NCBI GenBank assembly: GCA_965112155.1
Contig: OZ218099.1
Reading direction: 5' to 3' (one strand)
DNA length: 64,000 bases
DNA from: Podarcis liolepis
Lineage: Eukaryota
Part shown: positions 2,900-64,000 of the stretch, piece after piece
How the letters are laid out: each line of letters begins with the position of its first letter
Position numbering within the stretch: position 1 is the stretch's first letter
Position numbers and translations under genes: made by a program
The notes under the pieces: model-generated
Told to the model about the DNA's origin: nothing
The model's database searches: none
What the model saw: the letters and a program-made list of their open reading frames with translations, nothing else

Positions 2900-3790
2900 A
2901 CCCTGACTGTAACTGCGGTGGTTGAGCAGGCGAGGGACACGACGGTTTTACTTCCCGCTACGGGGCTTGATGCGCTTCTTGGGCGTTCCTCTGTCACCTC
3001 ACGGGAAAGCAGAGTCCGCTTGGGGTGGGGGGGCCGCGACCTGAAGGCCCCACCAGAGCGCCAGAGGCAAAGCGACCCCCGACCTCGCTTCTCCAAAGAC
3101 AGCCGCTTCCCTCAGGCCGTCGTCGCGCCCCCCCTTCCCCAACCCCCTCTCGGTTCATGCCAGAGCGGCGCCCCCTCACCGAGGTAAATGTCCCCGAAGG
3201 AGCCGCTCCCGATCTTCCGGCCAAGCCGGTACCGGTTCCCGACTCTCAACTCCATCGAGGCGGCTCGGCAGGACCCGGACCCAGTCGCGAGGGACCCTGA
3301 CTCAGAGCAGGGCGACGCCAGAGACCATCGCGGCCCTTAGCCCCGCCTCTCGACGCCGGAGGGATTCGGGGGCGACAGCGCACCCCGGGTGGGGAGGATG
3401 GACGCAGATTCCCCGAGACCCGGATCCTCCCTCAGCGCAGCTAAGCCCCAGCCGCCATATTATGTGACCTCACTTCCTTGGCAACAGGGGGCGGAGCTTT
3501 GCGACGGAGGAGCATCCTCTTCTGAGGGAAAGCTGGGTCAGGGGGACCAGATTGTGAGGCCGCGCGCGCGAGCGAGAAAGGGATGGGGAGGGAGAGGGGC
3601 CGCGTCTCCATGGTAACCGCTGGGCGCTGGAACCTGGGCGCGGGGCTTCCCCTCGGCTCATTGGCCGCTTTCGCCCCGCGGTAGGGTTTGGACTTGGCCC
3701 CACCCGTGAGAACCGAGGCAGCTGCCACCCCATAACCAGGGCTCCGCTCACGGGCGGGTCCAGCAGCAGCTGGCTGCGCCCTAGTATTGT
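2900..3790 (-). promoter_or_regulatory. CpG-island promoter/5'UTR of CSNK1D
   Basis: Abrupt GC- and CpG-rich block. YY1-like AATATGGCGGC and ETS GGAAGT on - strand (~3452-3478), RFX X-box-like GTCTCCATGGTAAC (3604-3617), CCAAT on - strand (~3660), GC boxes. Confidence 0.8.
3180..3255 (-). CDS. CSNK1D: Casein kinase I delta, coding exon 1 (gene continues beyond the left edge)
   Basis: Minus strand translates [25 protein letters not shown](G), 76 nt, then a GTGAGG donor at 3179. R at residue 8 fits delta (epsilon has K). Too short for the ORF track. Confidence 0.93.
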
Positions 3791-4429
3791 CAGAGATAAT
3801 TGGGCTTATTCACACAAACTTTTCTATAGGCTTCTGAGGCTGGAATAGCACGAAGCATGGTTGCAATACCGTCACGTAACCCCATAAAAAGATGGTGCCA
3901 AAGCACATGCTGGGGTTTGTCAACCCTCAAGATCTGAAACGGTTTCCAATTGATTCATGGATGGCAGTGTCCTTTCTTGAGGCGGGGCGGCTGGCAGTGA
4001 GAGAACTTACGGAAATGTCATGAAATCATAAGGATGAAGGTGGTTCAAGGAAGGCTATTCTTGAGATGTAAAGCTGTTTCTTATCGTTTCCCCACTTCAA
4101 TTTGGGATTTGAGCTCAGGATTTGCACCCTCCCCCAGGATGTGGCTGAAAAACAGGTTTCATATTTGGGCTGAGTTGTCTTTAATATGGGCCGTTTCATC
4201 TGGGAGAAGTGAATTCATGAATTCACTTCGTATTCATTTTATAGTGTTCTTACTCAAAGGCATGAATAGGAGGAGCCACGATGCATATGTTTTACACTGG
4301 ATGTTTTGCAGCTGATAAGCATCAGTCTGACTTAATTATGGTGTTTGGTGTAACGTGAAGAAACAAACCTTAACTTTGCTCTTTTATATCTAACTTGAGC
4401 TCTTTGGATTGCCAAGGTTAAGAATGTAT

Positions 4430-15700: not shown

Positions 15701-16802
15701 GTCAGGAGCCTGAAACTGAGATAACTGACAAGCCCAGTCTCAGCTGTACTGCCACATGAATCCTGAGGCATTTCGGACAGAACTTCCTGCTAACCACATA
15801 CCTGAGGAACATTGTGCTGTTCTACAACACCCATATAATAGCTTTCAGAGTTCAGAAGGCATACTTGCACTGTTTGCTGCCATGACAGGACAGCACCCCA
15901 CATCTGGATACTATGGTGAATTTACAAATATTTACGTGAACTGAAAAAGTTAGGAATTTTTTTAGGGGGTGAAGAACTAATTTGCTTGAATGTTACAGTG
16001 GGTATTCAGACTTAATTTACCACCTCCTGGAATACTTTCAAAGTGGACGAGACAGAAGATTGTGACCTCTAGATAAGGCATTCACACAGCCACCTACAAA
16101 GGGACAACCATTAGCAACTTTACAACCTCAACTGTTTGACTGAAGCCACAAAAAAATTATTTTTAAAAAACAGCACAAAAGAGTGCCCTTTTTCTATGCT
16201 GTGCTATCATAACTACAGCTGCACCCCTCTCTTCTGAACATTTGCTACTGAACCGGCAGGGCCGGCACCAGTTTTTGTGGACCAATGCTCCAGGTGTGTA
16301 AGACAGGCAGAAATTCCGTAATATGTACTGGTGAAACATCTGCATCACTGTATCTGCGTGTCCATAAACATCCACTCGTGCAATTCAAGCTTATCACGCT
16401 GCCAGCAGCTCGGGCAGGGATGTGGGGCTCATAGAAAGAAGAGAAAGCTGGTGGAAAGAACCATTATCCACTAGATACCGTGAGGCTGATTATTGCTATC
16501 CAGTCCGGGGGGGACAGACACACCAAAACAGGCTTCCCGCCTAATACCTTCGCCAGCGGGCCTTGCAGACGCTGCAGGTCGTCGTCTCCTTCCTCCACGT
16601 CCCCAAACAGCAGCTCCTCCAGGCCACGCTCCGCCGCGGGTTTCTCTGCCACGAGAGCCAAGTGCTGAGCCCGACGGATCTCCTCCGCGGCAGCCGCCAT
16701 GTGGCCGCCTCGCTCCTCGCCTCTTTCAAGCGGCCCTTTTCCGACCCGACGCCGCTTTCTGCCCTTCGACGCGCCTCGCCGGCCCGCAGCCCTCGCCTCC
16801 AT
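6698..16802 (-). CDS. UTP18: U3 snoRNA-associated protein 18 (WD40, SSU processome); spliced CDS of 13 coding exons, 1614 nt, 537 aa
   Basis: Exons 16802-16548, 15581-15448, 14647-14552, 13851-13772, 13107-13019, 12223-12098, 11676-11502, 11144-11044, 10396-10306, 9882-9759, 8854-8680, 7282-7140, 6722-6698. All GT-AG with consistent phases. Peptides match UTP18 (KPAWVDEDD, VQFHPSAQ, NPKIQSI, MDFSPRSGYF, HYSDF*). Confidence 0.96.
7140..7282 (-). CDS. UTP18: UTP18 exon 12
   Basis: VHIPSFTVFPNFP...MDFSPRSGYFSIANNKGRALLYR. Confidence 0.95.
8680..8854 (-). CDS. UTP18: UTP18 exon 11
   Basis: SSSGVVNVYAQDDCL...PKPLKAIMNLVT...EAVKL. Confidence 0.95.
9125..9420 (+). mobile_element. Degenerate L2-type LINE fragment
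   Basis: cttgccacagtagttcatgc...tagattactccaatgcactctatgtgggg corresponds to the L2 ORF2 'ATVVHAL..SRLDYCNALY.GLP' region, and resembles 23310-23390. Confidence 0.55.
9759..9882 (-). CDS. UTP18: UTP18 exon 10
   Basis: QGEVFVWDVKSRRCLNRFYDEG...NQYVACG. Confidence 0.93.
10306..10396 (-). CDS. UTP18: UTP18 exon 9
   Basis: TKELIGSMKINGKSLESSFSPDSSKIYTHS. Confidence 0.93.
11044..11144 (-). CDS. UTP18: UTP18 exon 8
   Basis: LEEKFIKNFEVSPDGRFLLLNGTSGYLHLLTMK. Confidence 0.93.
11502..11676 (-). CDS. UTP18: UTP18 exon 7
   Basis: VDGIANPKIQSIHLEGFP...IPITHIR. Confidence 0.95.
12098..12223 (-). CDS. UTP18: UTP18 exon 6
   Basis: MKNCKFANSERL...VQFHPSAQVIMTAGLDRSVSLFQ. Confidence 0.95.
13019..13107 (-). 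CDS. UTP18: UTP18 exon 5
   Basis: DSEDEGDELMHKTGNFVTVSDSLPRGFLQ. Confidence 0.92.
13772..13851 (-). CDS. UTP18: UTP18 exon 4
   Basis: FQSAMGATPSWAQRDRKKKVRKARDE; AG acceptor, GTAAAT donor. Confidence 0.88.
14552..14647 (-). CDS. UTP18: UTP18 exon 3
   Basis: IDMTHRYRKNMMKSDAEKKLTKEKLQRRLQE; AG acceptor, GTGAGT donor. Confidence 0.92.
14800..14950 (+). mobile_element. Degenerate tRNA-derived SINE (Squam3/MIR-like)
   Basis: gtgatggagtggttaagagtg...ggttcaaatc...cagccatgaaattcactgagtg. Confidence 0.5.
15448..15581 (-). CDS. UTP18: UTP18 exon 2
   Basis: VGDVLSG...KPAWVDEDDEVEE; TTTAAG acceptor, GTAAGC donor. Confidence 0.92.
16548..16802 (-). CDS. UTP18: UTP18 exon 1
   Basis: MEARAAG...ERGLEELLFGDVE...PLAK; donor GTATTA. 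A second in-frame ATG lies downstream, so the start is less certain. Confidence 0.85.
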
Positions 16803-17841: not shown

Positions 17842-54790
<36,949 letters not shown>

Positions 54791-55956
54791 GTAATGGGTC
54801 ATGTAAAAAAACAACAACGCTTATTAATGGAGGGCAAAATTGATTGAGGATCAAGCATGGTCAGGCATGAAACATGCTGACTCATTGCCGCCCTCACTTT
54901 TCATTTAAAAATAGAAAGAACATCCATTTCCTCCAGTATTTGCATCAGCCCATAAGCCCATCTCATTGAATTAATCACAAGTGTTGAGTCCCTGTTTTTT
55001 CCTGCTGCTTCAGAACTCAGCAAATCTCCTCAAAATGAACTAAATGGAAGTGCTTTCAATGTACATACTGAAACAAAGTGAACTAAATGCCAATAGATTT
55101 CAGTTATCACTGGATATTATTTTATATCCTGGATGTCATATCCAAAAATAATCAGTGGTCACCCTAAAAAAAGAGGGAAACTAGTTTTGGAAGATTTTAA
55201 AAACATCACCCCCCAAAATTAATAGACCTTTGTCAACAGCCTGCCACATTTTTCTTTAAGCTGAAAACAGATTTCAAAATGAGAAACACTCTCATTTATA
55301 TGTTCCCAAAATAAGTCCCTGTTGTGTGTTACTATTCTGATTATCATTCTGACACAATGAACAGGAGAAAATGAGCAGAATGAAAGGATTGAGTCACACT
55401 TGAGATCAATACAAACTGTAAGGTTGACATAGATGCCTCTTTCCAACTGTAAGAGAATTGAAAGTACAAAGCAATTTACTCCCAACAGTGTTTAGTGTGG
55501 AAATAGGTGCTTATTTAGTCTGAAGTAGACGGCTGCCTCTAAGAAAATGCAGGAGCTTATATTGTCAGTCTAATTCAGAGCTCCACTATGGAGAACTCCC
55601 CCACTTACTAGTATCTTGCTGGGCTTAATAGTGGAAAGGGTAGCACTGCATGCGCAAAGGATACTGGCAGGCTCATTAAAGTCTTGTCAATGTCCATATT
55701 TAGGTTGAAACAAAATGGTGCCCACTTGGAAAGGTGCTAGGTTTCAATCCTAGAAATATACACAAGTTGGGTCTGCTCCCCTTCCTTGTGAATTCTAACT
55801 AATGCAGAAATCTGGCTAGATTGGGAGGTTCTTTTCTGGACATAACCCAATTTGGACTCCACCAGAATCTATTGTGGGATCTTTCCTGTTCCAGGAGGGG
55901 CTTTTCAGGCATGGCCACAGATGCATATTGTCATATACCTGTGGCATGATTGGTGC

Positions 55957-56748
55957 TGTCAGAGCTGCTTGAAGATCCTAGCTCACAGAGGATCACGCTA
56001 GCCAGCGGTCATTAAGTAAAAGTCTTTATTGAATTACAGTTTCCATTCTCACGCTGCTGCGCGCAACTCTACGCCTAGTAGCTAGGTCGGCGAAGCTCCG
56101 TCTGAGTCTCCGCCCTGTGTGCACCAACTTAATATCCTAGCCTTGCTCCACCTTTTCCTCCTGACTGTCCTCCTCTGGGTCCCTCTACCCCCCGGGGCTT
56201 CTTCCTTCCGGGATTCTTCTGACGCTGACCCAGACCCTCCTGCCTCCTTGCGCCGGGCTTTAGGACCTGGCTCTCTTTCGGGGCTGCTTACTGCGCCGCC
56301 TTCCTCTGCATTTGAACTTGGCGCGCGCGCCCAACCTTCCACTTTCCTCTCAACCGTTTCTTCGCTCCCCGATGGAGGTGTGGCCATCCCCGACTCATGT
56401 CCTCCCTCCTGTGGAGGTGTGGCCACTCCTGACTCATGTCCTCCCTCCTGTGGTGAGCTGCCAGCGCTTCCCCCCTGGCTCCCTTCCTCTTCCCTGCTTC
56501 CTGGCGGTGACGCTGGTCCCGATTTCCAGCTGCTCCCCCCTGAGTCCTCTCTGGCTCTGTCTTCCTGGGGTGCCCCCCTAGACTCCCCCCTTGCCCTCGC
56601 CACTGGTGCTCCTTTCTGTGAATCCTCTGATTCACTGGAAAGACTAGGAGATCTCGGGTCGTCGTCGTCACTCATCTTTTCTTCTGCCTCCTCCCCTTCG
56701 CTCTCTGTTTCCTCCCTTGCCCGTGCTTCTGCTCCTAAACCCCTGACA
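55957..56748 (-). repeat. 3' LTR
   Basis: Direct repeat of 61787-62578; AATAAA on - strand at 56025-56030. Confidence 0.96.
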
Positions 56749-59700
56749 TCCATCCCCCCCTCGAAGCCCCCCATTCCCCCCTCCCCTCCTTCCGGTGCTG
56801 GAGCTGGGGGCTGCTGTTGCAAAGGGACGAACGTCGGGTATCGGTCGCTTCCCGTGGCAGGCCTCCATCTGAAGTCTCCCGGGTCTTCCTCCCCGCTCTC
56901 GTCGACGACAGTCACCTCCGCTTCCATCTCTGTGCCGCCGTGCTCGAAACCAGGGTCGTCCCCGAAAACGTCCATGTCCGTCTCTCCCTCACTTCCTCCT
57001 GTCGGTGTTGCTCGTCCTGGGCCTTCCAGCCACCGTCTGCGCCACTGCTCCTCTGGCCTATCGTCCCACCAATACGAGGGTTCTGATGCAGATCCCGAGG
57101 GTGACCCCTCCGGGGAACGGACGTCTTGTGTCGGGTCCTCGTCCGAGTCGAACCCCCGGAAAGTGCTGGCCGAAAGTGTGGGCGTGAAAAGCCAGTCGTC
57201 AAAATATTCTGCTGGCATAGGTCTATGGGGAAAGAGGGCATGAAACTCGTCTTTGAGGAGAGGTTCGTCCAAGGCGTAGCCCGGCACCCAGCTGTTCGCA
57301 CTGGCCGGGGTGCCCTCCTTGGCGAGAAAGTATTCTACCCCCTCTTCCCCCCATCTGGAGTCCAAAATCTCAGTGACTTCGTTGATGCGCTCCTTCTGTG
57401 CCACTTCCGCGTGCCCTGTTCTGTCTCTGACCGGACTCGGTGCTGTTCCGGGTTCCTGGAACCTGTGCGGTGCCTTGTAGGGAGTGAGCACCGATCTGTG
57501 GAATACCGGATGCATTCTGGAACCCTCCGGAAGTGCCAGTCTGAAAGCTACCGGGTTGACCTGCTCTTCGACTTGGTAGGGCCCCAGTTGCTTATGCCCT
57601 AGTTTCTTCTTGGCCAACGACCTGGCCGGCACTGCGTGGGCTGCTAACCAAACCCAGTCTCCCACGTGGAGCTCTTCTCCAACCCTTCTGTGCTTGTCTG
57701 CTTGTACCTTGTATGCGTGCTTGGCCAGCTCCAGGTGGCGCCTCAGCTGATCGTGGACCTCCTGCAGCTCCGACGCGAACGCATCTGCTGTCTGCGGCTC
57801 CCCCTCCCCCATTCTTTCCAGTCCCGGGAAGGTTCTGGGGTGCCTCCCGTTGTTGGCGAAGAACGGCGTGACCCCCGTGGACACGTGCTTCGTGTTGTTG
57901 TAGGCGAACTCGGCAAGCGGTAGGTAATCCACCCACGTCGCAGGCTGTTGATTTGCATAACATCTCAGGTACTGCTGCATGATGGCATTGACCCGCTCCG
58001 CTTGCCCGTTGGTCTGCGGGTGTCTCGCCGACGCCAGGTTGATCTTGACGTTCAGGAAGCCCATCAGCTTCTGCCAGAAATTCGAGATGAACTGCCGCCC
58101 CCGGTCGGACAGAATAGACCGTGGCAGACCGTGAACCTTGAACACGTGGTCTATGAACAGTTTGGCGGTTTGCTCCGCCGTGGCCACCTTCGCACACGGA
58201 ATGAAATGCGCCATCTTGGAAAACAGGTCCACCACCACCAGCACTGCCGTCTTGCCCCTTGAGCTGGGCAGATCCGTGACAAAGTCCAGAGCCACCCTTT
58301 CCCAAGGTTCGACCGGAGTTTGCAGCGGTTCCAACAGTCCGGCCGGCGGTTTGTGCACTGGTTTGGCCCTCTGGCAGGTGTCGCACCTCGCCACGTAGTC
58401 TGCGACCTCCCCTCTCATACCAGGCCACCAGAAATCCCTGGCTACTAATTCCACCGTCTTCTCCTTGCCAAAGTGCCCGGCCGTGGGCGCGTCGTGCAGC
58501 TGCTGCAGCACCTTGGCTCGAAGTTCGTCTCCCGGCACGTAGATGGCCCCTTTTCGGATGAGCAATCCATCTCGTAGCCGGAAACCGTCGGCCGCTGCCT
58601 TGCCCCTTTGCACCTCTGCCATCTTTGCTTGTGCGAAGGAGTCCTCCTGCAACGCACGTCGCACCGCCTCTAGGTCCACGGTCGCCGCGGCGCACGCCCA
58701 CACTGCTGGTGCGAAGATGTGCATGGCGGCCGCTGGCGTTGCGTCCTCCAGATACTGTGGCTTACGGGAGAGAGCGTCTGCCATGATGTTGGTGTCCCCC
58801 GGGACATACTCTATTCGGAAGTCGAAGTTTGCAAAGAACTCAGCCCAACGTATCTGCCTCTGGTTCAGGAACTGTGCCGTGCGCCAGTGCTCTAGATTCT
58901 TGTGGTCCGTGCAAACCTGCACCGTGTGCTTGGCGCCGATCAGAAAGTGCCTCCACGCCTTGAACGCTGCGTGAATGGCCAGCAACTCCCTGTCCCAGAT
59001 GGTGTAGTTCTGTTCGGACTTGCTGAGCTTCCTGGAGTAAAACGCTCCCGGTCGCCACACCCCCTGCGGGTCTTTCTGCAACAGGACCGCCCCCACGGCT
59101 CTGTCCGAGGCGTCTGTCTCCACCCTCATCGGCTTGCTGGGGTTGACATGAAGCAGCTGCTCTTCCGACGCGAAGAGACGCTTGAGTGCCTGAAAGGACT
59201 GCTCCGCCTGCGCTGTCCAAACGAACTTCTTCTTCTTGGAGCTAAGCGTGTCAGTGATGGCCGCTGTCTGCATCGCGAAGCCCTTGATAAACTTGCGATA
59301 GAAGTTCGCAAAGCCGACAAACCGTTGGACCTCCTTCCGGTTGCGCGGACTCTTCCAATCCAACACCGCTCGAACCTTGGCGCTGTCCATGGCGAGCCCC
59401 TTGTCAGACAGCTTGTAGCCCAGAAAATCCACCTCCGGCACGTCAAATTGGCACTTCTCCAGCTTGGCGTAGAGCCTATGTTGCTTTAGCCTGCTCAGCA
59501 CTTCCTTGACGTGTCCGTCATGCTCCTGCTGCGACTCCGAAAAGATCAGGATGTCATCTAAGAAACAGACGCACGTCTTGTAGAGAAGTCCCGCCAACAC
59601 GTGATGCATAAACGCTTGAAAAACGTGGGAGCCATTTTGCAATCCAAAAGGCATAACTCTATATTCGTAGGTCCCCAGTGGCGTGAACATGGCTGTCTTC

Positions 59701-60689
59701 CACTCATCTCCTTCCCGCATGCGAATGAGGTTGTACGCCCCCCGCAGGTCCAACTTGGTGAACACTCTGCCCTTCCGTACCTTTGCCAGGAGGTCGTCAA
59801 TACGGGGCATGGGGAAGTCCGATGGCCTAGTCAGACTGTTCAAAATCCTGTAATCCACTACCAGTCTTTTCTGGGGCGTGTCCCGCTTCTTAACAAAGAA
59901 TACGGGACTGCCCCCCACTGCCCTGGACTCCCGGATGAAGCCGCGTTGCAAATTATGGTCAATGAACTCTTTGAGTTCCTGCAGTTCGTCCTCTGACATG
60001 GAATACAGTTTCCCTTTAGGCAGCGCCGCCCCCGGCAGCAGGTCAATTTTGCAGTCATATGGTCTGTGAGGGGGTAGCCTGTCTGCCTCCTTCTCGCAGA
60101 AAACTTCCAAAAATTCAGCGTACTTGTGTGGAATCGCTTGCAGCGTGCCTAGCAGCAGCTGTGACTCCTCTTCCTCTCCTTCCTGCCTGGGCACGATGCA
60201 GTGTTCAGCACAAAAGGAAGAGCCGAAGGTCAGCTGCCTCTGGTAACAAGCCATCGCTGGGCTGTGCTTGTCCAGCCAACTCATGCCCAATACAATGGGC
60301 GTGTCAGATAGTCGAGTGACGTTGAAGCTGATGATTTCTCTGTGATTCCCAAGTCGCATCACCATTGGTGGCGTCTGCTTCACCACTTGCCCCCCGAGCA
60401 GCTCCCTGCCATCCACCGTGACAACCTGCAGGGGCAGTGTGGCCGGCAGCAACTGCACAGCGTGCCTGTCGACAAAGTCCTGCCCTATAAAGTCCGCATT
60501 GCTGCCTGAGTCAATGGTGATTGGCACGTCCATGGTGATTCCATTGGGCAGTTGGAGAGACGCTGTGAGCCTCACTACTGGTTTGGGCGGGAGGGGGTTC
60601 ACGGGCTGTAAAATCGCTGGGGACTGCGTCACTAACACGTCTGGCTGGGCCCCAGTGCCTCTTCCTCCAGCCAGACAGCCTCGTTTCCC
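56082..60689 (-). CDS. pol: Pol polyprotein (protease, RT, RNase H, integrase, chromodomain-like, long acidic tail), probably expressed by -1 frameshift from gag
   Basis: Protease IDSGS; RT MPFGL and FLDDILIFS; RNase H ETDASD; integrase H..H..C..C, DDE core and GPY. The track ORF 56082-60767 has no ATG upstream of the slip site. Confidence 0.93.
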   Translation of the reverse strand, partial: GKRGCLAGGRGTGAQPDVLVTQSPAILQPVNPLPPKPVVRLTASLQLPNGITMDVPITIDSGSNADFIGQDFVDRHAVQLLPATLPLQVVTVDGRELLGGQVVKQTPPMVMRLGNHREIISFNVTRLSDTPIVLGMSWLDKHSPAMACYQRQLTFGSSFCAEHCIVPRQEGEEEESQLLLGTLQAIPHKYAEFLEVFCEKEADRLPPHRPYDCKIDLLPGAALPKGKLYSMSEDELQELKEFIDHNLQRGFIRESRAVGGSPVFFVKKRDTPQKRLVVDYRILNSLTRPSDFPMPRIDDLLAKVRKGRVFTKLDLRGAYNLIRMREGDEWKTAMFTPLGTYEYRVMPFGLQNGSHVFQAFMHHVLAGLLYKTCVCFLDDILIFSESQQEHDGHVKEVLSRLKQHRLYAKLEKCQFDVPEVDFLGYKLSDKGLAMDSAKVRAVLDWKSPRNRKEVQRFVGFANFYRKFIKGFAMQTAAITDTLSSKKKKFVWTAQAEQSFQALKRLFASEEQLLHVNPSKPMRVETDASDRAVGAVLLQKDPQGVWRPGAFYSRKLSKSEQNYTIWDRELLAIHAAFKAWRHFLIGAKHTVQVCTDHKNLEHWRTAQFLNQRQIRWAEFFANFDFRIEYVPGDTNIMADALSRKPQYLEDATPAAAMHIFAPAVWACAAATVDLEAVRRALQEDSFAQAKMAEVQRGKAAADGFRLRDGLLIRKGAIYVPGDELRAKVLQQLHDAPTAGHFGKEKTVELVARDFWWPGMRGEVADYVARCDTCQRAKPVHKPPAGLLEPLQTPVEPWERVALDFVTDLPSSRGKTAVLVVVDLFSKMAHFIPCAKVATAEQTAKLFIDHVFKVHGLPRSILSDRGRQFISNFWQKLMGFLNVKINLASARHPQTNGQAERVNAIMQQYLRCYANQQPATWVDYLPLAEFAYNNTKHVSTGVTPFFANNGRHPRTFPGLERMGEGEPQTADAFASELQEVHDQLRRHLELAKHAYKVQADKHRRVGEELHVGDWVWLAAHAVPARSLAKKKLGHKQLGPYQVEEQVNPVAFRLALPEGSRMHPVFHRSVLTPYKAPHRFQEPGTAPSPVRDRTGHAEVAQKERINEVTEILDSRWGEEGVEYFLAKEGTPASANSWVPGYALDEPLLKDEFHALFPHRPMPAEYFDDWLFTPTLSASTFRGFDSDEDPTQDVRSPEGSPSGSASEPSYWWDDRPEEQWRRRWLEGPGRATPTGGSEGETDMDVFGDDPGFEHGGTEMEAEVTVVDESGEEDPGDFRWRPATGSDRYPTFVPLQQQPPAPAPEGGEGGMGGFEGGMDVRGLGAEARAREETESEGEEAEEKMSDDDDPRSPSLSSESEDSQKGAPVARARGESRGAPQEDRAREDSGGSSWKSGPASPPGSREEEGSQGGSAGSSPQEGGHESGVATPPQEGGHESGMATPPSGSEETVERKVEGWARAPSSNAEEGGAVSSPEREPGPKARRKEAGGSGSASEESRKEEAPGGRGTQRRTVRRKRWSKARILSWCTQGGDSDGASPT
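56749..56760 (-). other. Polypurine tract
   Basis: GGGGGGGATGGA immediately 5' of the 3' LTR on the - strand. Confidence 0.85.
60617..60689 (-). promoter_or_regulatory. -1 ribosomal frameshift signal (G GGA AAC + pseudoknot)
   Basis: Heptamer 60689-60683 in the gag frame; 6-nt spacer; 10-bp stem GTCTGGCTGG/CCAGCCAGAC; loop CTGGGG pairs with downstream CCCCAG. Confidence 0.82.
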
Positions 60690-61696
60690 TGCTGTGGTCC
60701 TCCTTGCTGTGTTGCTGCAGTCACCATTGCTGAGGCTGCAGTGAGCTTGTGGGGCCTCTGGGGACACTCTTTCGCCATATGCCCTGGCTCCTCACAGACG
60801 TAACACTTCCTGTTCCCTCTAGGAGGCTTCGCTTTCACTGCTGCTGGTGCTAGGGCTCTGGTTGCTGACTGAGCCCTTGCACCTCCCACCTCCATAGGTT
60901 CGGCTCCTCCTCCTGGCGGAGGCGTGGATTGCGTCCGCGCTGCTTCCCTGGGAAAGAAGGAGGGGCCCCCGGCTGGTTCGCGCCCTCCACGCCCTTCGTC
61001 CCTGTTCCACGGACGTCCTTCCAGCCTCACCCCCACTGCCAGTGCCCTCTGAACGACCTCCTGGGTGGTTCGGGGTCTCTCCCCCCTGGCGATCTCATCT
61101 TTAATCGAGTTATGCAGCCCCTCCCAAAAGAGGTCTCTTACAGGAGCCGAATCTCTGTCCCATTCCAGGGCACTGACCAAGGCGAAAAAGCGGGCATGGT
61201 ACTGCCTGACGCTGGCCCTCCCTTGTCTCAGCCCATGCACCTCCTTCCGTGCAAGATCCACGTCAATACTTGATAAAAAACACCCATCCATTGCTTTAAT
61301 AAAGGCATCTGCATTCTGTAGCGCCGGATCCTTATCTCTCCATAAATTGCGTAGCCATGCTCTCGCATCCCCATGCAGATGGGACATGATGAACCCCACT
61401 CTCTCTTGTTCATCTCTAAAGTCTTTATGCAGCAGTTGCAGTGCGCACAGTATGTCGGCTCTAAAGTTGGGATACTGTTGCAGGTTCCCATCGAAGTGAG
61501 AGACCAGCCCGCCTGTCCGTCTCGCCAACCCAATGCCCTCCTGCCGGGGTGTCTGCTTTGTCAGCACGTCTAACCTGACCTGGAGATCCCTGCAGGCTGC
61601 GGCTGCTTCCTCCTCCCTCTTCCTGGATGCTAGAGCCTCGGCGTTCAGTTGTGCCACCGCGTTTCTGAGTTCCTCTATCTGCTGCTCAGCCGTCAT
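60632..61696 (-). CDS. gag: Gag (coiled coil, capsid, CCHC zinc knuckle), 354 aa
   Basis: Intact ORF; LRQGRASVRQY capsid motif, EPMEVG motif, CYVCEEPGHMAKEC knuckle. Confidence 0.93.
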   Translation of the reverse strand: MTAEQQIEELRNAVAQLNAEALASRKREEEAAAACRDLQVRLDVLTKQTPRQEGIGLARRTGGLVSHFDGNLQQYPNFRADILCALQLLHKDFRDEQERVGFIMSHLHGDARAWLRNLWRDKDPALQNADAFIKAMDGCFLSSIDVDLARKEVHGLRQGRASVRQYHARFFALVSALEWDRDSAPVRDLFWEGLHNSIKDEIARGERPRTTQEVVQRALAVGVRLEGRPWNRDEGRGGREPAGGPSFFPREAARTQSTPPPGGGAEPMEVGGARAQSATRALAPAAVKAKPPRGNRKCYVCEEPGHMAKECPQRPHKLTAASAMVTAATQQGGPQQGNEAVWLEEEALGPSQTC

Positions 61697-61773
61697 GTCG
61701 TCTGCCGTTCGTGAGCTTGCTAGTAGGCACCTGTGTCTCTCCCCTCCTCGAGGCTGTAGATGCCCACAAGTTG

Positions 61774-61784
61774 AGACGGAGCTT
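61774..61784 (-). promoter_or_regulatory. Self-priming primer-binding site
   Basis: AAGCTCCGTCT, 2 nt after the 5' LTR, is the exact complement of AGACGGAGCTT at 61933-61923 within the LTR; no TGG tRNA-type PBS. Confidence 0.78.
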
Positions 61785-61786
61785 AC

Positions 61787-62578
61787 TGTCAGAGCTGCTT
61801 GAAGATCCTAGCTCACAGAGGATCACGCTAGCCAGCGGTCATTAAGTAAAAGTCTTTATTGAATTACAGTTTCCATTCTCACGCTGCTGCGCGCAACTCT
61901 ACGCCTAGTAGCTAGGTCGGCGAAGCTCCGTCTGAGTCTCCGCCCTGTGTGCACCAACTTAATATCCTAGCCTTGCTCCACCTTTTCCTCCTGACTGTCC
62001 TCCTCTGGGTCCCTCTACCCCCCGGGGCTTCTTCCTTCCGGGATTCTTCTGACGCTGACCCAGACCCTCCTGCCTCCTTGCGCCGGGCTTTAGGACCTGG
62101 CTCTCTTTCGGGGCTGCTTACTGCGCCGCCTTCCTCTGCATTTGAACTTGGCGCGCGCGCCCAACCTTCCACTTTCCTCTCAACCGTTTCTTCGCTCCCC
62201 GATGGAGGTGTGGCCATCCCCGACTCATGTCCTCCCTCCTGTGGAGGTGTGGCCACTCCTGACTCATGTCCTCCCTCCTGTGGTGAGCTGCCAGCGCTTC
62301 CCCCCTGGCTCCCTTCCTCTTCCCTGCTTCCTGGCGGTGACGCTGGTCCCGATTTCCAGCTGCTCCCCCCTGAGTCCTCTCTGGCTCTGTCTTCCTGGGG
62401 TGCCCCCCTAGACTCCCCCCTTGCCCTCGCCACTGGTGCTCCTTTCTGTGAATCCTCTGATTCACTGGAAAGACTAGGAGATCTCGGGTCGTCGTCGTCA
62501 CTCATCTTTTCTTCTGCCTCCTCCCCTTCGCTCTCTGTTTCCTCCCTTGCCCGTGCTTCTGCTCCTAAACCCCTGACA
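61787..62578 (-). repeat. 5' LTR
   Basis: Direct repeat of 55957-56748; TATA-like TATTAAG at 61964-61958, predicted TSS ~61933. Confidence 0.96.
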
Positions 62579-64000
62579 GGTGCGTTCCTTTTCATAAAGG
62601 CCACTGCAGAGGCTGCAGTTTGCTTGACATGAGTCAGTCTTTGCCTGCCAGCACCAAGCAGCTGTTCTGGTATTCAGCAGGAAAGGTCCCATTTACACCA
62701 TGCAGTGGGTTGCAGTGTGCACAGGGTCTCTGAACAGCGAGGAACCAAAAATCTGCAAAGCCCACTCAGTTTCACCTGCTTCTGCTGGGGTGAACAAATT
62801 GAGGATTTGATTTATTTATCAAATTTCTCCTCACCTAGCCCTAGCTTTAACTATTCCTACTTCTTGGATAGTTGTAACTATTGGAGCACATACTGACTAC
62901 AGTTGTTGGTTAGAGAGAAAAATGTTCCACATCTCACAAACGGGAATGAAGTGTCTTTCCCCGTAAGCATACTGAAGACCTATGGCATATTTAAAACAAT
63001 AGGCAGAAAGCCAAGCGCAGCTCATTATACATCCTCATTTTTCGGTCATTACAACATCTCTATACAGATGCATTGTTCAGTAGTAACTCACCTCGCTACT
63101 TAAAAGCTGGTCTTGTTTCCTTGAGTGTTCACGCTACTAACTTTGTTTGTATTTGAAATGTTAAGAATTATAAAACTGGTTGCATTTTTTCAGCACTGAA
63201 AACATCAAACCTTTAGGTAATTTTTGAGAGACTGGTCTCTTGGAGAGCATGCAATGTCCCCAAATGAGTCCCATTTTTATACATACATACAGTGTTAATT
63301 GATTTGACGTAGGGTCTTCAATGCACTGAATTTCCAAGGTTGCAAGGCTGGGGGGTGATTGGGAATGCTACAGGACCTCATTGAGTTTACAAAAGTTCAG
63401 AAGAAACTTGCATATATCTGCTACCTTCTTGCCTTCTGAGAACTCTCCATGTTTACCCTAACCAATAAAATATCAGAGTCCCATATATCTCCTTGTATCG
63501 TACTGTATATGTAGGAGCCAGGCCCGGCTGTGTGGCTTTTTGAGATGGCTTTTCTTTTCGCAATATGCCCTTTTCTAATCCTTCGGATGAAATGCTTTAT
63601 TTGTGCCACTGTCTCAGGCATGTTGAAAGATCAGAAAACAGGTATTTGATGATAGGGATGAAATTAGCCTCTGTGCTTCCTTCCATCAATTACTAAGGGT
63701 AGTGCCAGAATACCAGCTTACTTTGAACTGTAGCTGCGGAATTTCACCACTGGGATCTACATGTGAGAGGTCCATTTTCAATATGAAATAATGATGTGAT
63801 GATGAAAAAGCACGCCCCCCCTTTTTTGGTGCAGCTATTAAGAGCATTGGAGCATAGATCCATAATGAATTTTGTAACCTTAAATTTAGGTCCTCTTGCC
63901 AAATAGAAATAACTAGAATGAACTGAACAAAATATTTCCTGTGGTGTAAGATGAAAATCGAGAGCATTATAATGAGCAACCAGACTTCATTATCATGCAT

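Follow-up and report, generated by a model that had tools for sequence, protein, structure and literature searches.

The window, the 64,000-nt stretch of the Podarcis liolepis genome analysed here, contains on its minus strand an intact LTR retrotransposon of 6622 bp, a chromovirus of the Tf1/sushi type. The element is bounded by two 792-bp LTRs (5′ LTR, 61787–62578; 3′ LTR, 55957–56748), which are identical in sequence and run from TG to CA, and is flanked by a 5-bp target-site duplication, GCACC (62579–62583, with a twin at 55952–55956). The primer-binding site (PBS; 61774–61784) pairs over 11 nt with LTR positions 61933–61923 and their twin 56103–56093. The pairing is present in both the MFE and the centroid folds; the energy of the whole-region fold around the PBS is not unusual (z −0.56). 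Based on this complementarity, the start site is placed at 61933/56103, and the segment 61923–61933 (twin 56093–56103) would serve as both the RNA 5′ end and the self-primer. Self-priming of this kind, in which the PBS pairs with the 5′ end of the RNA itself, is found in Tf1 and its vertebrate relatives, according to the available text of PMC4600332. A TATA-like sequence, TATTAA (56129–56134), lies 31 nt upstream of the inferred start site and overlaps codons ILS, and a polyadenylation signal, AATAAA, is located at 56025–56030.

The gag gene (60632–61696) encodes 354 aa from its first Met, including a capsid and a CCHC knuckle. The heptamer GGGAAAC (60683–60689) is a potential slippery site, and together with a stem downstream of it suggests a −1 frameshift from gag into pol; the site resembles the frameshift sites of PEG10 and sushi elements. 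The pol frame (56082–60791, 1569 codons from stop to stop) encodes PR, RT, RNase H, IN with H2C2, core and SH3 segments, a chromodomain and a long tail. The LTRs with TG and CA ends, the target-site duplication, gag followed by PR-RT-RH-IN, the C-terminal chromodomain and the self-priming PBS are all features of Tf1/sushi elements (V-clade). Its most probable affiliation is with the vertebrate V-clade. An MBT-repeat gene, probably MBTD1, lies nearby (Pfam MBT at 44473 and 47516; further exon-like stretches at about 48800 and at 54600–54790), and the element is inserted antisense to it, some 1.2 kb 3′ of one of its exon-like stretches.

The chromodomain that the earlier note had placed at the integrase C-terminus (57219–57383) is real, though degenerate. 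Its Pfam Chromo score is 19.1 bits, under the 25.1-bit cut-off, compared with 30–47 bits in four distant relatives. HP1 chromodomains are its best matches by sequence and by fold, with weak E-values. Residues N, K and T of the element align with Y, W and Y of HP1, presumably the residues of the methyl-lysine cage, and the chromodomain is, as judged from this alignment, one without the aromatic cage.

The pol frame continues past the chromodomain for 377 aa (57215–56085, minus strand). It crosses the polypurine tract (PPT; 56749–56762) in frame, reads the whole of the inferred U3 and seven codons of R, and ends at a stop codon in R (56082–56084). A total of 221 codons lie inside the 3′ LTR, so that 667 of 792 positions of the LTR (84%) are open; the same frame holds six stops in the LTR, every one at or past 56084. 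These measurements bear out the extension of about 375 codons, about 220 of them in the LTR, described in the earlier note, and the aromatic islands, the basic cluster and the other motifs it quoted are all in place. The assignment of the stop to R had relied on a predicted start site; the 11-nt pairing between the PBS and the LTR now fixes that site independently. Near the end of the tail lies a basic cluster (56142–56174), potentially NLS-like or DNA-binding, and a basic cluster occupies the same place in both families of relatives described below. The LTR part also contains an in-frame tandem duplication of 39 bp (13 codons; 56373–56449), which is not found in six relatives aligned.

The LTR contains 12% T, and it had been cautioned that GC- and purine-rich DNA has few stops by chance. 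Dinucleotide shuffles (5000 each) argue against this, with a stop-free frame arising at a probability of 0.0004 over the whole tail, 0.055 over its pre-LTR part and 0.011 over its LTR part. An antisense frame of 385 codons is also open, and was rejected as a gene: it has no Met, and its codon-shuffle P is 0.044. Neither this frame nor the tail matches any Pfam family. In the ESM Atlas, no usable match was found for the tail, and the related protein P0056 retrieved chromodomain clusters only, under 0.9. Single-sequence folding was uninformative (pLDDT 46).

Related proteins were collected through indexed searches, a full profile-library search and cluster look-ups, which together gave at least 106 proteins, the window's two included. 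Among the matches listed, the closest are UniRef entries of Podarcis muralis, up to 98% identical over RT-RH-IN. Integrase identity to the window is 84–98% in its own family (the window family), 50–54% in a sister family, and 32–39% in fish and fungal chromoviruses, from which the two families stand apart, also in an integrase tree of fetched matches (FastTree, 27 sequences). The named members of both families, among the members listed, come from Podarcis throughout. A search of viral and metagenome contigs yielded no DNA of relatives.

Retention of the frame was scored in motif-bearing proteins of both families, all of them gene predictions and thus biased toward open frames, with the matching end taken at the TATA box and start site. 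In the window family, 16 of 33 proteins run to the matching end (P0059 arrives there via a shifted stretch), 7 end or shift earlier in the LTR, 5 shift at the PPT, and 5 end before the PPT. The corresponding numbers for the sister family are 15, 6, 2 and 4 of 27, counted without P0091 and P0092, which also run to the end. Over both families, the frame is thus lost at the PPT in 7 of 60 proteins, and in a further 13 of 60 it stops or changes within the LTR. The LTR part comprises 209–221 codons in the window family and about 100–115 in the sister family, and in both the last features of the frame are a basic cluster and, behind it, an L-x-W motif. In the window, this motif overlaps the TATA box; because the conserved end overlaps both the TATA box and the self-primer, constraint at the DNA level partly explains its conservation.

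Compared with P0037 and P0050, the LTR part of the window's element has accumulated about 100 replacements and 6 in-frame indels (4–6 between subfamilies) and no stop. The probability that 100 replacements remain stop-free by chance is 0.001–0.006, assuming that nonsense makes up 5–7% of non-synonymous changes. Together with the shuffles, this stop-free divergence leads us to reject a GC artefact as the source of the tail frame. Among the 12 of 35 indels listed, a one-base deletion at 56754, in the G run of the PPT, was present in 12 contigs of contig set X1 (about 7% of depth) and 21 of set X7 (about 12%), and in none of sets X5 or X6; it is either a genuine variant or an error at the homopolymer. 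Set X6, guessed to be RNA, has a higher depth over the LTR, and contig depth is unable to rank regions. Since the deletion recurs, shortening the G run of the PPT by one base in some of the other copies, individual elements may do without the LTR part or obtain it in trans. Among the 40 of 1136 substitutions listed, 7 fall in the tail, 4 synonymous and 3 not, too few to use. Taken as a comparison of predicted proteins, these data support the view that the tail is a conserved family feature of a Podarcis chromovirus clade.

Directly behind the chromodomain, the tail contains a motif (57135–57206) like the TND-interacting motifs (TIMs) of host proteins, composed of a predicted helix (YFDDWLF), an 8-residue S/T linker, FRGF and an acidic stretch. 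In both families, the layout is a helix with an anchor F, a linker of 8–9 residues and FxGF, in one or two copies. All 19 clusters that represent the two families carry the motif (shuffle P ≤ 0.006 each), counts that are inflated by a pattern written after seeing the sequences and by the presence of the motif in the profile that fetched the sister family; the first sister-family matches were found from the window sequence alone, without a motif-bearing profile. It was found in none of 10 fish, fungal and other chromovirus matches, several of which have very short tails, and had no match in 23,081 upstream residues. The count does not include P0070, whose prediction is chimeric, P0079, which is no retroelement, or P0052 and P0010/P0046, whose frame is lost ahead of the motif; fragments lacking a chromodomain were also set aside. 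Three clusters carry two full copies. In the sister family, the motif lies in the same register, usually with a second copy 35–45 residues further on, and the linkers are strongly acidic.

The motif is, by alignment of the subfamilies, the best-kept part of the tail. Between the two most distant subfamily members, 17–20 of its 21 residues are retained, compared with 45–46 of 99 in the next stretch and 105–108 of 208 in the LTR part; identity between the same subfamilies is about 85% in pol versus about 45–50% in the tail outside the motif. An AlphaFold2 model built with 41 sequences shows a confident chromodomain and a helix on EYFDDWL, with pLDDT of about 70 falling to below 50, and has low confidence beyond; in the low-confidence FRGF region there is no sign of packing on the chromodomain. 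The earlier note had listed YFDDWLF merely as one of several aromatic islands; the island is present, but the informative part is the FxGF region, and the LTR-coded stretch is only about 50% identical between subfamilies.

The available text of PMC9987994 defines a TIM as a helix with F/V/L/I anchors, a D/E-rich linker of 8–16 residues, often with G/S/T and phosphorylated by CK2, and FxGF; FxGF is needed by all known LEDGF/HRP2 partners, several proteins carry TIMs in tandem, and CK2 enhances binding. The stricter consensus, as given in the accessible part of PMC8022399, is D/ExExFxGF. Measured against these definitions, the helix anchor F is present in 19 of 19 clusters, FxGF is present, and the linker is 8–9 residues throughout. 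The linker is acidic in the sister family; in the window family it contains five S/T and no D/E, and the acidic run follows FxGF rather than preceding it. The strict consensus is matched by 0 of 9 window-family clusters and 5 of 10 sister-family clusters. The tail contains 19 CK2-type sites. A profile of 8 motif copies searched against the PDB returned no TIM-bearing chain at E ≤ 10. Thus the motif appears TIM-like in layout only, and the case is weaker for the window family than for the sister family.

An extension of pol for targeting or nuclear localization was among the possibilities raised in the earlier note, and it is the best reading, given family-wide retention and the conserved motif. 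Specifically, we give about an even chance to a scheme in which the tail, predicted to be mostly disordered, stays on the integrase and would tether it to LEDGF/HRP2 via the helix, linker and FxGF, with the basic end used for import or DNA binding. In this scheme, a −1 frameshift would make Gag-Pol, and the protease would leave the tail on IN, yielding an integrase of about 800 residues. Phosphorylation of the S/T linker could provide the charge that D/E gives in the sister family, and the motif would dock on the TND of LEDGF/HRP2. Since LEDGF and HRP2 are H3K36me3 readers, docking would bias insertion toward transcribed, H3K36me3-marked gene bodies, with the tail replacing the cage-less chromodomain in this role. 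U3 would double as a loosely constrained acidic spacer, and the basic cluster would serve nuclear import or DNA binding; the frame may be held across a fast-changing U3 because this cluster sits at its far end. The insertion site, in an intron or at the end of the MBT-repeat gene, is weak evidence for gene-body bias (n = 1). A broader proposal, to which we give somewhat less than an even chance, is that the clade captured a host-type FxGF TIM to hitch its integrase to LEDGF/HRP2, converging with HIV by linear-motif mimicry, while its cage decayed and the whole of U3 was made coding.

The tail could instead be a selected integrase extension whose aromatic and acidic motifs bind another partner, in which case targeting would not proceed via LEDGF/HRP2. 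Such a partner could be a different TND, for instance that of IWS1, TFIIS or MED26, or a transport factor, or a part of the element itself, its capsid or its chromodomain. Conservation shows function and not the identity of the partner, the window family lacks the strict LEDGF consensus, and further conserved aromatic islands (YWWD/E, WRR) are left unexplained by tethering. Yet FxGF is specific to LEDGF/HRP2 among TNDs in the available text of PMC9987994, the 8–9-residue spacing and tandem copies fit TIMs, and the AlphaFold2 model gives no hint of FRGF binding the chromodomain; we consider a different partner somewhat unlikely. A second alternative is that only the pre-LTR motif matters, or nothing at all, the LTR part being tolerated read-through in T-poor DNA that is ended by constraint on the TATA box and self-primer. 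Its divergence far exceeds that of pol (about 50% versus 85% identity), and the low T content, the recurrent loss of frame at the PPT and the open antisense frame all fit such read-through. What makes this account unlikely is that a stop-free frame is improbable even at this composition, and that U3, unrelated in length between the two families (about 100 versus about 210–220 codons), is in each of them open as far as the start site, with a basic cluster at the end of the frame. Moreover, T-poverty may itself follow from coding, as Sushi U3s are T-rich in the available text of PMC3601003.

The tail might also, or mainly, be made as a separate 378-aa protein by way of splicing to a subgenomic RNA; like the LTR-overlapping accessory genes of retroviruses, it would then work in the nucleus as an activator or decoy. 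A candidate acceptor (AG at 57224–57223, within 57216–57240) with an in-frame Met at 57218, 4 nt later, was recognized from its letters; none of the 591 AG sites exceeds it in pyrimidine count, though it shares the top value, and the Met is kept in 34 of 34 family proteins. The LTR/PBS junction ACA/GTAAGC, previously suggested as the donor, does not stand up as a good one: it agrees with the consensus at 6 of 9 positions, its score is equalled or exceeded at 48 of 267 GT sites, and its sequence is explained by overlap with the self-priming PBS, which adjoins the donor-like GTAAGC. A better donor (7 of 9) lies at 61730, between the PBS and the start of gag, and the leader as far as the LTR end contains no upstream frames other than two short ones. 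On the other hand, the Met is missing from the corresponding place in the sister family, the pyrimidine run may merely encode FHALFPH, the splice-site scores are crude counts, and both families carry the frame as a continuation of pol. No junction into the candidate acceptor was seen among the 15 of 320 joints listed. We regard a spliced product as distinctly unlikely, and return to tethering of the integrase through its tail as the preferred reading.

If LEDGF/HRP2 tethering is correct, the element, an amniote retrotransposon active in recent times, would represent a second, independent route to LEDGF, taken with a LEDGF/HRP2 motif of the host type; a gene-body insertion bias would be expected in lacertid genomes, and the promoter region would be constrained both as coding sequence and as a regulatory region. 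Should binding fail, a well-supported and apparently undescribed integrase extension remains. The extension may already be mentioned by Piskurek 2009, on an Anolis chromovirus. In the literature searched, titles and abstract openings apart from the papers cited here and short of most subscription papers, FxGF is not described for any retrotransposon integrase, nor is the lizard extension, and the parts available do not address site choice by vertebrate chromoviruses.

The element resembles vertebrate V-clade (Tf1/sushi) chromoviruses, both Sushi-like and Amn-like, in domain order, chromodomain, self-priming PBS and 5-bp target-site duplication, as far as these are described in the available parts of PMC2774666 and PMC4600332. 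The fish chromovirus matches are 34–38% identical in integrase, and their frames appear to reach or pass the PPT. In contrast to the element, the fish and fungal matches lack FxGF, and the fish proteins carry a basic RGRGRP patch directly after the chromodomain where the element has a long acidic tail through U3. A pol frame in the LTR, treated in the earlier note as a departure for chromoviruses, is not new, being already present in plant CRM group A, where pol runs on into the 3′ LTR and supplies the integrase with a putative targeting domain (PMC3059260, available text). The layout therefore has precedent, and it is the integrase extension that is apparently undescribed. In CRM group A, the same text describes an LTR-coded CR motif that replaces the chromodomain, a tRNA-Met PBS and a partner that is unknown; the element keeps its chromodomain, has its conserved motif before the PPT, resides in an animal host and has a self-priming PBS. 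On the strength of its chromodomain and self-priming PBS, membership of CRM group A was rejected for the element.

With the TIMs of KMT2A/MLL1, JPO2, IWS1 and JIL-1, as presented in the available portions of PMC9987994, PMC8022399 and bioRxiv 624023, the element shares a hydrophobic helix, a linker of 8–9 residues, FxGF and tandem copies, as well as a disordered acidic context and CK2-type sites. The DFxGFDE of JIL-1 (bioRxiv 624023, in part) resembles the window's motif in having an acidic run after FxGF. For the host proteins binding has been shown, whereas the motif of the element is known from sequence, with an S/T linker without D/E in the window family. Like the integrase tails of Ty1 and Ty5, which offer a precedent, the tail would combine a disordered C-terminus with a short targeting motif, an NLS and phosphorylation control; Ty1 and Ty5 are Copia-type elements with the yeast partners AC40 and Sir4, and the available text of PMC9673352 describes no LTR overlap for them. 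LEDGF binding is described as lentivirus-specific, via a folded pocket at the integrase core-domain dimer, in the part of PMC3185499 available. The proposed outcome for the element, tethering to active genes, is the same, but unlike the lentiviral integrases with their pocket, the element would use a linear, host-type motif on its tail.

A frame that runs antisense to the tail (56086–57243, plus strand) stays open for 385 codons without containing a Met, and its codon-shuffle P value is 0.044, indicating that composition does not fully account for its openness. Within the tail itself, a second conserved aromatic island, YWWD/E followed by W(R/K)R.W, lies at 57074–57030 (minus strand) and is found in 7/7 aligned family members. 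A one-base deletion at 56754, in the G run of the PPT, recurs in other copies of the element (contigs of X1 and X7), and a frame change at this G run occurs in seven predicted proteins. In the fish chromoviruses P0069 and P0071–P0076, the pol frame apparently reaches or crosses the PPT, and a basic RGRGRP patch, presumably AT-hook-like, directly follows the chromodomain.

The element is antisense to an MBT-repeat gene (about 17800–54800, plus strand; presumably MBTD1-like), close to the 3′ end of the gene. A minus-strand gene, which we take to be UTP18-like, starts near 16700, head to head with the MBT-repeat gene. Another CpG island, at 3001–4000, contains possible minus-strand gene starts. 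The window also contains a 389-bp self-inverted (palindromic) element with 97% arms (42544–42932) and smaller ones at 49286–49421 and 52365–52500, all of which are likely MITE-type repeats.

The self-priming PBS (61774–61784) pairs perfectly over 11 nt with its complement at 61923–61933, thereby fixing the transcription start site. On the minus strand, a donor-like site is positioned between the PBS and gag (61730), and a strong acceptor-like site with an in-frame Met is positioned at the start of the tail (57224–57216). This putative donor and acceptor are placed similarly to those of an env-type subgenomic splice.
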